This document shows, in pieces, positions 49,629 through 54,807 of a stretch of 64,000 bases of DNA; position 1 is the stretch's first letter, and each line of letters begins with the position of its first letter. The translations under genes and the position numbers were made by a program. The notes beneath the pieces are model-generated. The model did no database searches. It worked only from the letters and a program-made list of their open reading frames with translations, and was not told the DNA's origin. The stretch comes from a bacterium (GTDB lineage: Bacteria; Zixibacteria; MSB-5A5; GN15; FEB-12). The stretch spans positions 1 through 64,000 of the forward strand of contig JBDRNJ010000044.1 of NCBI GenBank assembly GCA_043811375.1, given 5' to 3'.

Positions 49629-50954
49629 ATGAATAAATCTGCTCTTCACATATCCCGGCTGATGTGGCTTCTGTTCCTGCTGCCATCTCTGTTGCAAGGT
49701 CAGTTGTCCTCCGGAGAGGGTCGCTCGCAATCGGCCGGATTACTGGTCGATTATGCCTCCTTTGCCTCTGACAGCGCCGGGGATATCCGCCTGGAGTTAT
49801 ATTGCCGCCTTCCCAATAAAGCGCTGCAGTTTCAGAAAACAGAAACCGGCTTCGTGGCTCGTTACGAGTTGGCCGTCTCAGTGAAGGGTGACCGGGACCG
49901 GCAACTGGCGGTCGCTTCAAAAGCGGGGGAGATCCACGCCACCAGTGAACAGCAAGCCATGTCGGCTGTTGACTTCCGTATCAGACAGTTCAACTTTGAT
50001 TTGCCGCCCGGCAAATATCGAGCCGTCATCAGACTCACCGACGAAAATTCCTCCCTCACCCGAACCAACGATCTGGATGTGAAATTGCGTGATTTCGACA
50101 GCGAATCACCCGGTCTGTCCGATATAGAACTGGTTCGGTTTTCAGAACCGTCGAACCAGGATACCGGCAGTTTCACCAAGGGAGACTTGACGGTAATTCC
50201 ATCGGTAACCGGCAACTACGGGGGAGATGCCGGTCGACCGCTGCAGTTTTATCTGGAGGTATACCAGGGTCAAGGCAAATCGGAGCGGGCTCGCATCGAG
50301 ACCATCCTGCGACCCGGGAAGGGAAGAATGATCTACCGGGATTCGACCACCGTGGAGTTCGACACACCGCTGATACGGCAGATACGGCAGGTGTCCCTGA
50401 CCGACTTTCCTCCCGGAGACTATGAACTGGTGGTATTGCTGAAGGGACGCCGGGGAAAGAAACTGGCCGTTCGCTACAAGGATTTTCACATTGCCTGGTC
50501 GGTCGAGGCGGCTCTGCGACATGACTTCCAGGCAGCCGTGGATCAACTGAGTTATATCGCCTCCAACGAGGAAATTCAGGAACTGAAACGCCCAAAGACT
50601 TTCGAGGACCGATTACAGGCCTTCCAGGAGTTCTGGCTCAAACACGATCCCACACCGGAAACGCCGGAAAACGAACTGAAATCCTCGTTTTATCACCGGA
50701 TAACGATAGCCAACCAGCGGTTCACTGCCATGGGTCGCTCCGGTTGGCAGACAGATCGCGGACGTATCTATATTCAGTACGGTGAGCCTGATCAAATCGA
50801 AGACAACCCGATCGCTCTCAGCGGACCCCCTTATCAGTACTGGCATTACTACCGTCACGGTTCCTACCGTAAGTTTACTTTTGTGGACGAACATGAAGAT
50901 GGAGACTACCGACTGCTGTTCCCATACGACGGTCTCCATCAACGACCGAATTGA
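49629..50954 (+). CDS. GWxTD domain-containing protein
   Basis: Signal peptide, Ig-like N-terminal part, FW..HDPTPETPENE and GWQTDRGRIYIQYGEP. Confidence 0.92.
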   Translation: MNKSALHISRLMWLLFLLPSLLQGQLSSGEGRSQSAGLLVDYASFASDSAGDIRLELYCRLPNKALQFQKTETGFVARYELAVSVKGDRDRQLAVASKAGEIHATSEQQAMSAVDFRIRQFNFDLPPGKYRAVIRLTDENSSLTRTNDLDVKLRDFDSESPGLSDIELVRFSEPSNQDTGSFTKGDLTVIPSVTGNYGGDAGRPLQFYLEVYQGQGKSERARIETILRPGKGRMIYRDSTTVEFDTPLIRQIRQVSLTDFPPGDYELVVLLKGRRGKKLAVRYKDFHIAWSVEAALRHDFQAAVDQLSYIASNEEIQELKRPKTFEDRLQAFQEFWLKHDPTPETPENELKSSFYHRITIANQRFTAMGRSGWQTDRGRIYIQYGEPDQIEDNPIALSGPPYQYWHYYRHGSYRKFTFVDEHEDGDYRLLFPYDGLHQRPN

Positions 50955-50970
50955 GATAAAAGGAATTACC

Positions 50971-52419
50971 ATGTTATTAGTGCGTATAGCTGCCGTGATC
51001 CTCATTGGGTGCGGTCTGGCAGGTTCGGTATCGACCGAAACAGCTGCCTCCGACATTGATTCTCAACTGACCATCTATGCCGGGGTTATCACCTACCCCA
51101 ATCCTGACTATGATTCGCTGACTTTAGTTGAGATTTCCTTCTCGCTCAATCGCCATCAGTTGACCTTCTACCGGCAGGACTCCAGTCAGTCGGACCTGTA
51201 TGCCTACATCCACGCTCGCTTGGATTTCTATGATACAACCGGAGCAGAGGTTGATTCCGTAAGCACCTTTTTCTCGGTCAGAGTCGACTCGCGGGAAGAA
51301 GCAGCTCAACCGGGTTACCGGGTCTTTAACCGCTTGGTGCGTTTCTTTCGGCCGGGTCGTTACTCAGCGCATCTGACGGTAACCAACGTGGCCGACGACC
51401 GCCGGGGGGAAGTTGCCCTGGATGATTTTGACGTGGAACCGGCCGACACAGAGAGACTCACTTTAGGAGGTGTCAGTCTGGCCTACAACGTTGATTTCGT
51501 CGGTGACGACTACCTGGGAACGAATGCTCGGTTGATCAAGAACGGTTATCTGGTGATTCAGAATCCGGCTGCCTTATACAGTCCCGAAGAAGATACCGTC
51601 GCCTGGGTCTATGGTGAGTTGTACAATCTGGACTACGCCCCGGAGAATCCTTCCAGCTACGAGTTGTCGTATGCCGTTTTGAATTCCGACTCCAGCCTGT
51701 ATCTCAACCTGGGCAGCGTGGCGGTAGTGAAACCGGGGCGCACGGCGGTAATTACCGAATCGATAGATATCGTTGGCTGGCCTGCCGGGCGCTACTACCT
51801 GCGTCTGGCCGCTCGTGATCAGACTACCGGTGAGACGGACACAACCCTGGTTTCGTTTATCATACTGCTGTCGCGGGAAGCTATGCTGGCATCACTCAAA
51901 CCGCACAGCAGTGACCCTTATGACACCCTCAGCCTCGAAGTTAAGATCCAATTGGCTACACACTTCCTGACGCCGGAGGAGAAAATAACCCTGAAGCGTC
52001 TGACCAACCTCGGCAAAGTTAATTTCCTTAAGCAATTCTGGAGAGAACGTGACGAAACTCCCGCCACTGATATCAATGAGTACCGTCTCGAATTGATCGA
52101 ACGCTTCGAATATTGTAATCGGCGTTTCTCCAACTACGAAGACCGATCGGACGGCTGGTCTACCGACCGCGGCCGCATATATATTGTATATGGCCCCTGG
52201 GAAGAGATCGAAGACAAGCAGTCACCACTGGTGGACGACGCCTATCAGATTTGGTACTATCACTCCCTCAGGGAAGGCAAGTACTTCGTCTTTCAGGACA
52301 TCACCGGCAGCTTCGACTACCGCCTGGTACACTCTAACGTATATGGCGAGATCTACTCCCGGGGATGGCAGGACATCATAGACCGGGGACTGGAGTCGGA
52401 TCGGCCGCTGGACTATTGA
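50971..52419 (+). CDS. GWxTD domain-containing protein
   Basis: Signal peptide, FWRERD..P.T..NE and GWSTDRGRIYIVYGP. Confidence 0.92.
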   Translation: MLLVRIAAVILIGCGLAGSVSTETAASDIDSQLTIYAGVITYPNPDYDSLTLVEISFSLNRHQLTFYRQDSSQSDLYAYIHARLDFYDTTGAEVDSVSTFFSVRVDSREEAAQPGYRVFNRLVRFFRPGRYSAHLTVTNVADDRRGEVALDDFDVEPADTERLTLGGVSLAYNVDFVGDDYLGTNARLIKNGYLVIQNPAALYSPEEDTVAWVYGELYNLDYAPENPSSYELSYAVLNSDSSLYLNLGSVAVVKPGRTAVITESIDIVGWPAGRYYLRLAARDQTTGETDTTLVSFIILLSREAMLASLKPHSSDPYDTLSLEVKIQLATHFLTPEEKITLKRLTNLGKVNFLKQFWRERDETPATDINEYRLELIERFEYCNRRFSNYEDRSDGWSTDRGRIYIVYGPWEEIEDKQSPLVDDAYQIWYYHSLREGKYFVFQDITGSFDYRLVHSNVYGEIYSRGWQDIIDRGLESDRPLDY

Positions 52420-52434
52420 GATTGCTGAACCGGA

Positions 52435-52467
52435 TAAAAAAAAGCCGCCCGATGGCGGCCTTTTTAT
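52435..52467. terminator. Bidirectional intrinsic terminator
   Basis: A-tract, GCCGCC-CGAT-GGCGGC stem, then a T-tract, between convergent genes. Confidence 0.85.
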
Positions 52468-52482
52468 TGACGTTATTGGTTA

Positions 52483-53244
52483 CTAAGGAGTACCCTTCTT
52501 AACCTGGCCCGGTTTCGGCGGTGGCGTGGATTTGGCTATATGAAGCGACCGCTTGACCGGTATCGTAAACCGGGACACTTCCTTGTCTTCGGCTCCCACA
52601 ACTTCGATCGTAACCGACTTCTCAAACGAGTCGCCGAATGTCGCTTCTAACAATTTCAGACGCCCTTGTCCGCTCTTGCCCGGTTTGATTGACTTCGGTA
52701 CCTCGATTTCGAACAAACCCTCGGGCATACCAACCACCGACAATTCCAGCTTCTGATCGGATACGTTGGCTATTTCAAATTTCTTGTCCTTAATGATCTT
52801 TTCGCTGAACTGGGACAAGTCCAGTTTGTATGGTTGGATAACGATCGGATAGGTCGAATCCGGTCGCTCTGTTATGTGTGAGATAATCTCGACTCTCTTG
52901 TCGGGCGGTCCTTCGTTTGTTTGAATCTGTGGCCGCTTGGTTATGCGCTTTTTATATTTCTTCGTATGAAAGATTATCTCCAGCCGGGTGCTGTCACCGA
53001 CAGCAAGCACGTTGTTTTCCAACGGTGCTTTGGTGCAGCCTCACCCAGGTTTGATGGTCAGAATCCGGAGGGTGTCGTCGCCTTCCGAGTGCAGCCAGAA
53101 AACATGGCTCACAACCGCGTTCTGGGGCACAAACCCGAAATCAAAGGACGAAATCGGGATCGTCAGCCGGGGTGCAGTGTGCCCTGTGGCCACCAACAGC
53201 AGCAGCAGAACCACCGCAATAATCAGAAGCTTCAGACTATTCAT
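52483..53244 (-). CDS. Secreted DUF1573-domain selenoprotein candidate (253 aa, Sec at codon 68)
   Basis: ORFs 53041..53244 and 52483..53022 are in one frame, joined by an in-frame TGA (53043-53041), reading IKPG-U-GCTKAPLE. The paralog reads VKTG-C-ACAVMPLE. A SECIS-like hairpin follows the TGA. Confidence 0.85.
52990..53040 (-). promoter_or_regulatory. Bacterial SECIS-like stem-loop
   Basis: Ten nt after UGA: AAGCAC-C-GUUG-GAAAA-CAAC-GUGCUU. The apical loop starts with G after 21 nt. A lower stem GCUGCACC/GGUGACAGC is also possible. Confidence 0.75.
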
Positions 53245-53307
53245 AGGAAACGTTATTCCTTTCTCTCAATTCGATCATGTTCTATACTCTATTTTCGCCA
53301 GATCAGG

Positions 53308-54009
53308 TTATTCTTTTACTAGGTAAAATTTCCTCTCAACCGGAATTGTAAAATGAGTCTTGGGCTTGTCCGATACCAGCAGGGTTATCGAAGTCTTAAA
53401 CTCAGTATCAGCATACTCCGGTTTCAGTTTAATCCAGCCGGTATCCTGGGTGTTGGCTCGGATACTGTCAGGTATGGATATCACGCATTGCTCCGGCAGG
53501 TCTGAAATCAAAGTTACCGTCAGATCAAACTTGGAATGATTGGTGAAAACGAAACTGAGACTGTCAATATCCTTACGCTCAGATTTAGCAAACAGAAAAC
53601 GGTAGGGTGTTGATGAAATCGGACGAATCGAATCCGGGTACATAAGGACAACACCCTTCAGGTGCAGTCGCAGAGGATCAGGACCACCGTTGGTAAAGAT
53701 TCTGGCGATACGGTTTATGCCGCCCCGGTGCTTCTCGATATCCCAATGGATGCTCACCTTCATGCTGTCACCGGGTGCGATCTGCTCCCGCTCCAGAGGC
53801 ATTACGGCACAGGCACAACCGGTCTTGACCTCCTTGATCACCACCGTGTCAGTTCCGATTGACTTAAACCAGAAACTGTGTACCAGACGGGCTCGTTGAG
53901 GTGTATAGCCAAAGTCATACATCGGCGTTGAACATGCCAACTGAGGTTGCGAACAAACATCGGCGGCGGCCACCAGAGTTACGGCCAGAATAATCAAAAT
54001 ATTTTTCAT
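53308..54009 (-). CDS. Secreted DUF1573-domain protein (Cys paralog)
   Basis: Signal peptide, YDFG..P, HSFWFKS.G.DT, GCACA and IAPGDS; collinear with the downstream Sec paralog. Confidence 0.85.
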   Translation of the reverse strand: MKNILIILAVTLVAAADVCSQPQLACSTPMYDFGYTPQRARLVHSFWFKSIGTDTVVIKEVKTGCACAVMPLEREQIAPGDSMKVSIHWDIEKHRGGINRIARIFTNGGPDPLRLHLKGVVLMYPDSIRPISSTPYRFLFAKSERKDIDSLSFVFTNHSKFDLTVTLISDLPEQCVISIPDSIRANTQDTGWIKLKPEYADTEFKTSITLLVSDKPKTHFTIPVERKFYLVKE

Positions 54010-54059
54010 GCTACACTTATAGCTAATGGTTTTCTCATTCGTTCCCGAACACTGCTAAA

Positions 54060-54088
54060 TATATATGCAAAACAGACGGTATAGTCAA
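54060..54088 (-). promoter_or_regulatory. Putative sigma70 promoter for the DUF1573 pair
   Basis: TTGACT-N17-TATATA on the minus strand. Confidence 0.5.
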
Positions 54089-54242
54089 GCCACTTGTGAA
54101 CTCTTCCATAGTGACGGAGCCTTCTAAGCTACAGCCTGACCGGCAATTGCTGCATTCGACAGAGCCTGAAATACTTTATGTTTCTGCCGCCCACAGCAAT
54201 GGGAATTGGAGTCGGTGTGCCCGAGCCGGGTCTGAACGGTCC

Positions 54243-54807
54243 TCAGCCAGGACAGCCGGCCGGTGGTGGGCCGCCGGTGAAAAGGTAGTCAACCAGCCGA
54301 GTAATATCGGCAACATCAATGGAGCTACTGTCGTCAGCATCGCCTTCCTCAGGACAGGGAGGAGGAAATCCACCCTGGAAGATATAATCGACAAGGTACG
54401 TCAGGTCCCCCACGTTGATGGCGCCGTCACTATCGGCATCACCGGTCGTGGGCGAAGGGGGAAAAGATCATGTCGGCCAGTGTGCTGACATTTATGTCGT
54501 GGCCCGTCCCTCCCGGGGAATTGACGGCAACGAATTCCCAGCCGGAAATCAGAGTGCCGCTGGTATCGAAGGTCATTTGAAACTCCATGATGTCGGGGCG
54601 GTCAAGTATCAGCCACGGGTTGAATCCGGCGATGGAGTCGGAATAGTTCTTCATGTAAATCGGGATTTCAACTCCCTGTTCTCCCGTCAGGGCGGTGATA
54701 TCCTCAACAATAACTTCAAGAAGCAGACTGTCCTGGGCGTGAGTCACTGATGCAATCATAATGACTGCCATAATTGCCGCCGCAAGTGTCGACAAACGAT
54801 ATTTCAT
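54243..54807 (-). pseudogene. Cohesin-dockerin secreted protein gene with an out-of-frame internal junction
   Basis: Signal peptide plus a partial cohesin-like domain, then in another frame PTTGDADSDGAINVGDLTYLVDYIFQGG...GDADDSSSIDVADITRLVDYLFTGGPPPAGCPG*. Junction near 54450-54460. Confidence 0.8.

Follow-up and report, generated by a model that had tools for sequence, protein, structure and literature searches.

Two open reading frames on the reverse strand of the 64,000-nucleotide stretch of DNA analysed here (the window) are parted solely by a TGA codon at 53043-53041. They lie in the same frame, the first at 53244-53041 (67 aa) and the second at 53022-52483, as the sequence-only reading had described. 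Read through, they yield a product of 253 aa in which U68 sits within KPG-U-GC-TKAP, and the full selenoprotein gene (52483..53244, minus strand) would encode a signal peptide and two Ig-like (PapD/ASH-like) domains. The probable cleavable signal peptide, residues 1-24 (53173..53244), is suggested by the sequence, the structure model and the homolog consensus; it contains a hydrophobic helix at residues 2-19, the cleavage site being placed by inference rather than by a predictor. A DUF1573 (PF07610) domain follows at residues 32-120 (52885..53151; 72.6 bits, cut-off 26.1). The in-frame TGA (53041..53043), as Sec68, opens a U-G-C motif located in a loop after the strand at residues 59-65, and the motif closes with Cys70 (53037-53035). 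The structure model and a fold search place the second Ig-like domain at residues ~131-235 (52540..52854). Gene callers had been expected to split such a gene, and protein databases do list its C-terminal 175-aa piece, downstream of the TGA, as a separate entry, along with many similar fragments.

Immediately upstream lies a tandem Cys paralog of 233 aa with a C-A-C motif (53308..54009, minus strand). The collinearity claimed for the two proteins holds (32% identity over 240 columns), and the first Cys of the paralog aligns to the TGA. On the other side, a hairpin resembling an intrinsic terminator, with T-runs on both strands (52444..52459), separates the gene from convergent GWxTD genes; of 29 related loci, 27 have a homolog of the GWxTD-domain gene at 50782..52419 (plus strand) no more than 1.5 kb away. 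Further DUF1573-related frames occur in this genome: a paralog with a C-D-C motif just past the window (contig C44, 64276-64992, minus strand) and an open frame of 2988 aa containing four repeats that resemble DUF1573 (C64, 27265-34647). Within the window, at 54807-54243 (minus strand), an ORF of 122 aa that opens in a signal-like way ends at the point where a dockerin-like frame starts (54443-54246; Dockerin_1 at 20.9 bits, cut-off 22.9). The arrangement has the look of a secreted dockerin protein that is broken or collapsed.

The recoding of this TGA as selenocysteine (Sec), proposed from the sequence alone, is consistent with the gene content of the genome and with the conservation of the site. 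The genome is 95% complete and holds selA and selB adjacent on contig C68 (SelB of 634 aa), a selD with its own in-frame TGA, and a single TCA-anticodon tRNA scoring 68.5 bits against a tRNA-Sec cut-off of 47. Beside the usual Sec selD, five relatives (L124-L128) carry another selD-like frame, which is longer (553-754 aa) and has no TGA. Homologs of the DUF1573 gene were found in 61 of 61 searched genomes, and the best 20 matches (the gene itself and 19 relatives) each have exactly one TGA; the named records of close homologs are chiefly Zixibacteria, and many are labelled Ignavibacteriales. We compared 173 distinct genes. They come from L008-L123, a set made up of the search loci and of 40 regions chosen to cover both states. 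The same column holds TGA in 83, Cys in 89 and AAC in one, with intact downstream frames in the TGA genes. TGA is also used as an ordinary terminator, by 20 of the 83 Sec genes and 24 of the 90 non-Sec genes. Since TGA recurs in 83/173 genes and also ends genes normally, both a private mutation and a global recoding are excluded, the latter as had been stated before.

The TGA might instead be a true stop, in a broken gene or between two genes, or be decoded as Cys or Trp. Gene callers do begin an ORF downstream of it, and tRNAs that decode UGA as Cys have been described in some bacteria (PMC13582414). However, 83 genes share a single TGA at one Cys column and keep their frames intact beyond it, the Sec machinery is full and the sole TCA tRNA is classed as Sec, and TGA has a normal terminator role; such readings are very improbable. 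Because the machinery is complete and the TGA recurs at a conserved Cys column in related genes, the codon is almost certainly decoded as Sec at residue 68, selenium incorporation itself being deduced from sequence. Among sequencing reads, no run held half of the sampled words; a contig from an RNA run matches 52643-52848, falling short of the TGA, and one DNA contig covers the TGA at ~93% identity.

Downstream of the UGA, the mRNA would form two consecutive hairpins (positions are numbered from the nucleotide after the UGA). Hairpin 1, at +11..+36 (53005..53030, minus strand), is the one named by the sequence-only reading and is present as drawn, AAGCAC-C-GUUG[GAAAA]CAAC-GUGCUU. Cut to its own ends, it folds with -10.8 kcal/mol (z -3.95), a value that none of 200 shuffles equals; the wider 64-nt region is unexceptional (fold z -1.35; 22/200 shuffles as good). 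Its G is first in a 5-nt loop at +22, with a spacing of 21 nt and an energy below -7.5 kcal/mol, in agreement with the formal bSECIS rule (loop of 3-9 nt, a G as its first or second base, spacing of 16-37 nt, energy < -7.5). Covariation, a check that had been suggested for this hairpin, was seen in its stem. Mean stem energy is -9.9 kcal/mol in Sec genes versus -3.95 kcal/mol in Cys genes, and one pair shows 33 double-sided changes; the stem of hairpin 1 is under Sec-specific selection. The loop G, on the other hand, is not enriched, being found in 63/83 Sec and 24/37 Cys genes (p 0.27, uncorrected). The loop pattern G[G/U] occurs in 22/83 Sec genes, and the GAAAA loop here departs from it.

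Directly behind it, and absent from the earlier description, lies hairpin 2, at +37..+51 (52990..53004, minus strand), which reads GCUGUC-GGU-GACAGC with its loop at 52998-52996 and which we propose as the SelB-binding SECIS core. Its 6-7 bp stem, GGU loop and energy of -8.4 kcal/mol agree with the bSECIS rule (stem of 4-16 bp, small loop with a conserved G[G/U], energy < -7.5), whereas its loop at +43, a spacing of 42 nt, falls outside the 16-37 nt range. Sec genes encode this segment with the codons GCT GTC GGY GAC AGY, and the exact sequence CTGTCGGYGACAG stands at +38..+50 in 79 of the 83 TGA genes and in none of the 90 others. The tandem Cys paralog also lacks it, and the motif is gone from Cys copies that share up to 84% identity with a Sec gene. 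Parsimony on the gene tree counts 27 changes between Sec and non-Sec, 26 of the motif and 29 joint ones, with interleaved states, in a tree that has many weak nodes and for which gene conversion is a possible alternative to independent changes. All these genes are related, were hand-picked from hit lists and are not independent of one another.

The conservation of hairpin 2 extends to synonymous positions. Of the four-fold codons conserved in 80 Sec genes, 31 in all, just two never vary, Ala81 (GCT, 77/77) and Val82 (GTC, 79/79). A GG-loop hairpin is formed by 80 of the 83 Sec genes, against 5.8 expected after synonymous recoding, and by none of 85 Cys genes (four of the 89 were skipped, the Gly being missing). 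Over the 13 pairs of both stems together, pairing amounts to 89.4% in 82 Sec genes, a level matched by 0/500 shuffles, versus 49.8% in 38 close Cys genes, matched by 83/500. Hairpin 2 is nearly invariant and shows almost no covariation within the clade, its 3' arm being partly constrained by a conserved G-D-S peptide; a compensatory change from G-C to A-U was found in two tandem genes of one genome (L502). Of the two hairpins, G-loop conservation is confined to hairpin 2. The identification of hairpin 1 as the SelB-binding SECIS is therefore probably wrong, its loop G not being Sec-specific and the conserved G-loop lying in hairpin 2. Rfam SECIS covariance models gave no match at E <= 1 within 52300-54300. 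An alternative fold that pairs +2..+9 with hairpin 2 is seen in some genes; at decoding, bases +2..+9 are expected to be inside the ribosome.

The selD gene of the same lineage served as a positive control. Its G-loop is canonical: 23 of 30 loci were parsed, and in all 22 Sec genes the loop G falls at +21, whereas the DUF1573 gene studied here shows a G[G/U] loop solely at +43. A genome-wide dicodon scan for read-through ORFs was noisy (578 candidates), and only the motif-plausible ones were retained. Elsewhere in the genome, likely Sec codons lie at C72:221768 (plus strand), in a G-U-G-G ORF that is presumably HesB-like, with a G-loop hairpin at +27, and at C57:13826 (minus strand), in a U-x-x-C ORF that we take to be thioredoxin-like, with a G-loop hairpin at +24; both are at the canonical distance.

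We found comparable layouts in other DUF1573 clades. The phylum of a Pelobacter-labelled genome, presumably Desulfobacterota, matches the NCBIfam model NF041425 in 95 of 251 genomes. From 72 loci of this second phylum an HMM extracted 71 genes, 23 with Cys and 48 with TGA, one of the latter coming from a genome not covered by that search; a regular expression had caught only 26. Hairpin 1 is again Sec-specific there (-9.1 vs -4.1 kcal/mol), and its loop has G in only 3/47, below the 15.4 expected. A GG-loop hairpin with a different stem lies at +40 or +42, in a region where the P-P-G-G peptide itself favours hairpins (31/47 Sec genes vs 21.8 after recoding; 13/22 Cys genes vs 7.4). The +42 form, here with an outer pair that covaries, also occurs in a longer paralog clade of the home phylum, to which the second Sec gene of this genome, on contig C51, belongs. 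In a further clade a longer hairpin 1 is followed by UCCAC-GGUC-GUGG with its loop at +54; this form was found in 17 of the 28 TGA genes retrieved, the other 11 having the +43 form.

Altogether, the distal classes, three of them defined by motif and one by Gly position, cover 175 of 184 distinct Sec genes (+43, 91; +42, 34; +40, 33; +54, 17). With hairpin 1 subtracted, the distance between the UGA and the G is 17-30 nt in 175/175 genes, and 17-27 nt in the class of our gene (91/91). The loop G of hairpin 1, present in 67/91 of that class, falls to 4/34, 2/33 and 5/17 in the others. A motif-free scan of the Sec genes detected a G[G/U] loop only at the distal place in 142, at both places in 33, only at the proximal place in 5 and at neither in 4; the corresponding counts in 143 non-Sec genes were 41, 4, 13 and 85. 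A distal loop is thus present in 175/184 Sec genes vs 45/143 others, and a proximal one in 38/184 vs 17/143. Sec genes outside the distal classes (L470-L472, L474, L123, L408) mostly have a single G[G/U] hairpin at +18 to +31.

We consider it likely, on the basis of these sequence patterns, that the insertion signal is made of two parts, hairpin 1 looping out the spacer and hairpin 2 binding SelB. The usual SelA/SelB/SelD/tRNA-Sec system would carry out insertion at residue 68. As a spacer-shortening helix that begins 10 nt past the UGA, hairpin 1 would shorten the path by 24-26 nt and thereby bring the hairpin-2 G-loop to ~17-19 nt from the UGA, close to the usual 20. With the UGA in the A site, hairpin 1 would stand at the mRNA entry and bring the base of hairpin 2 alongside, where domain 4 of SelB could bind the GGU loop. 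SelB binding and the loop-out geometry, like selenium incorporation, are what we infer here.

Other divisions of labour between the hairpins are possible. Hairpin 1 could be the SECIS, with hairpin 2 as an accessory element such as a ribosome pause, an mRNA stabiliser or an enhancer; the agreement of hairpin 1 with the formal consensus in this gene and its Sec-specific, covarying stem would fit, but the similar loop G frequencies in Sec and Cys genes, the deficit of that G in the second phylum and its scarcity in the other distal classes, when SelD retains its own in every gene, make this improbable. Just as improbable, in our view, is the use of both loops, either as redundant SelB sites or with hairpin 2 pre-loading SelB and then passing it to hairpin 1. 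Such a scheme could accommodate the 33 Sec genes with G[G/U] at both places, and the second Sec paralog of this genome, whose G[G/U] loops are at +21 and +42; the distribution over the remaining genes, nearly all distal only and a handful proximal only, is however an either/or pattern. Finally, hairpin 2 is a perfect inverted repeat with little covariation, and its palindrome is unique in the genome, as might be expected of a protein-bound DNA palindrome or of a mere amino-acid constraint. Its loss in closely similar Cys duplicates, the unrelated palindromes at other offsets in other clades and the fixed third codon positions speak against both, and we give these readings very little credence.

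In comparison with canonical SECIS elements, as characterized in PMC13188914 and PMC4605307, hairpin 2 likewise lies within the coding sequence, 3' of the UGA, and has a loop of the form N1-G[G/U]-N-N2 (C-GGU-G). The bSECISearch consensus (PMC13188914) calls for a G[G/U] loop at a distance of 16-37 nt from the UGA, and the SelB geometry outlined in PMC4605307 involves a 6-8 bp stem and a loop G ~20 nt from the UGA. The distal loop G, in contrast, lies at +43 here and at +40, +42 and +54 in sister clades, and it always stands behind a second, Sec-specific hairpin that has no conserved loop. We lean towards regarding the two-part SECIS as a distinct bacterial class, in which a loop-indifferent helper would fold out 18-30 nt and a SelB-binding G-loop 40-54 nt from the UGA would thereby reach the entry site of the ribosome; it would have arisen in at least three stem sequences in one family and two phyla. 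Our search of the open-access literature found no two-hairpin bacterial SECIS; a prior description may exist outside it, for instance in the 2005 paper on bSECISearch, in Liu et al. 1998 or Inoue et al. 2024, or in supplements. Atypical SECIS classes are said to exist undescribed, according to PMC12013277 and PMC13188914, and related literature includes PMC11431864, PMC7026636 and bioRxiv 10.64898/2026.09.15.751765.

The protein itself does not represent a new family. It had been taken to fall outside the classic selenoprotein families, but DUF1573/OS_HP2 proteins with a UGC motif have been catalogued as selenoproteins since 2007-2008, and NCBIfam has a model for the OS_HP2 (seleno)protein (NF041425). 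OS_HP2 is reported in PMC1976440 and equated with pfam07610 and the motif UxC in PMC2398784, and DUF1573 with UGC/UxC appears in the selenoprotein tables of PMC9312934, PMC13188914 and PMC2398784. The SECIS figure legend in the 2007 paper (PMC1976440) includes no OS_HP2 example. Our gene shares the Pfam domain, the position of the U-G-C and the widespread Cys homologs with the catalogued proteins, and its PF07610 score, TGA/Cys homolog pairs and sel genes are those of a DUF1573 selenoprotein; the catalogued members, as far as these sources present them, are likewise predicted only and without assigned function. Its score against NF041425, 66.1 bits, is below the cut-off of 100, which is reached in none of 121 genomes of this phylum, and by its sequence the gene is therefore a divergent branch of the listed family. 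This Zixibacteria-type branch has two domains and ~250 aa and is split in databases. The DUF1573 family uses both single-hairpin canonical and two-hairpin layouts.

The exported Ig-like fold suggested earlier was recovered in a structure model computed from a 98-row alignment with Cys standing for Sec (pLDDT 94.3, pTM 0.84). The model has an N-terminal helix and two beta-sandwiches, with the U-G-C in a loop. Its best fold match is PDB 2qsv, a Porphyromonas gingivalis protein of unknown function (Z 14.0; rmsd 1.7 Å over 101 residues), and it resembles ASH/PapD-like Ig domains such as HYDIN, VesB and pilus chaperones (Z 11-13); identity to 2qsv and to these domains is only 7-16%, however, and a common fold is no functional proof. 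A PDB sequence search with the protein gave no match. Pilus genes are absent among the scanned neighbours, and the resemblance to PapD-like chaperones is one of fold only.

Hints of function come from paralogs at 30-39% identity and not from the gene itself, whose own neighbourhood offers little beyond the tandem Cys paralog and the convergent GWxTD genes. A Cys DUF1573 paralog (C72:98192-98905, plus strand; L543) lies between signal peptidase I and ccmA-B-C-E-F, and loci of this type have signal peptidase I in 22/22, ccmA in 16/22 and ccmB in 15/22 cases. The second Sec DUF1573 gene (C51:2728-3921, minus strand; L544) encodes 398 aa with U-G-C and two hairpins, and sits in a cluster with ArsR, a MacB-type ABC transporter and Acr3; among loci of this type, ArsR occurs in 6/17, a permease in 9/17 and Acr3 in 3/17, and a search with this paralog returned mostly Bacteroidota-labelled records. 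It is tempting to hypothesize, at somewhat less than even odds, that the U-G-C loop forms a redox-active Se-S bond acting on the thiols of exported proteins. Binding of a soft metal(loid) by the loop seems unlikely, and a structural bond at U-G-C more unlikely still. With low confidence, we favour an envelope thiol-redox helper over either of the other roles.

The protein adds one member to a family already listed, yet a whole Zixibacteria branch of it is split in databases, and the RNA signal matters more. If general, the two-hairpin class would explain part of the selenoprotein genes missed by the standard model. If the proposed arrangement is true, the codons right after Sec would be freed from carrying the SelB loop. 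The layout suggests that SelB gauges spatial distance rather than nucleotide count, and it could broaden gene prediction as well as the ways in which recombinant selenoproteins are designed.
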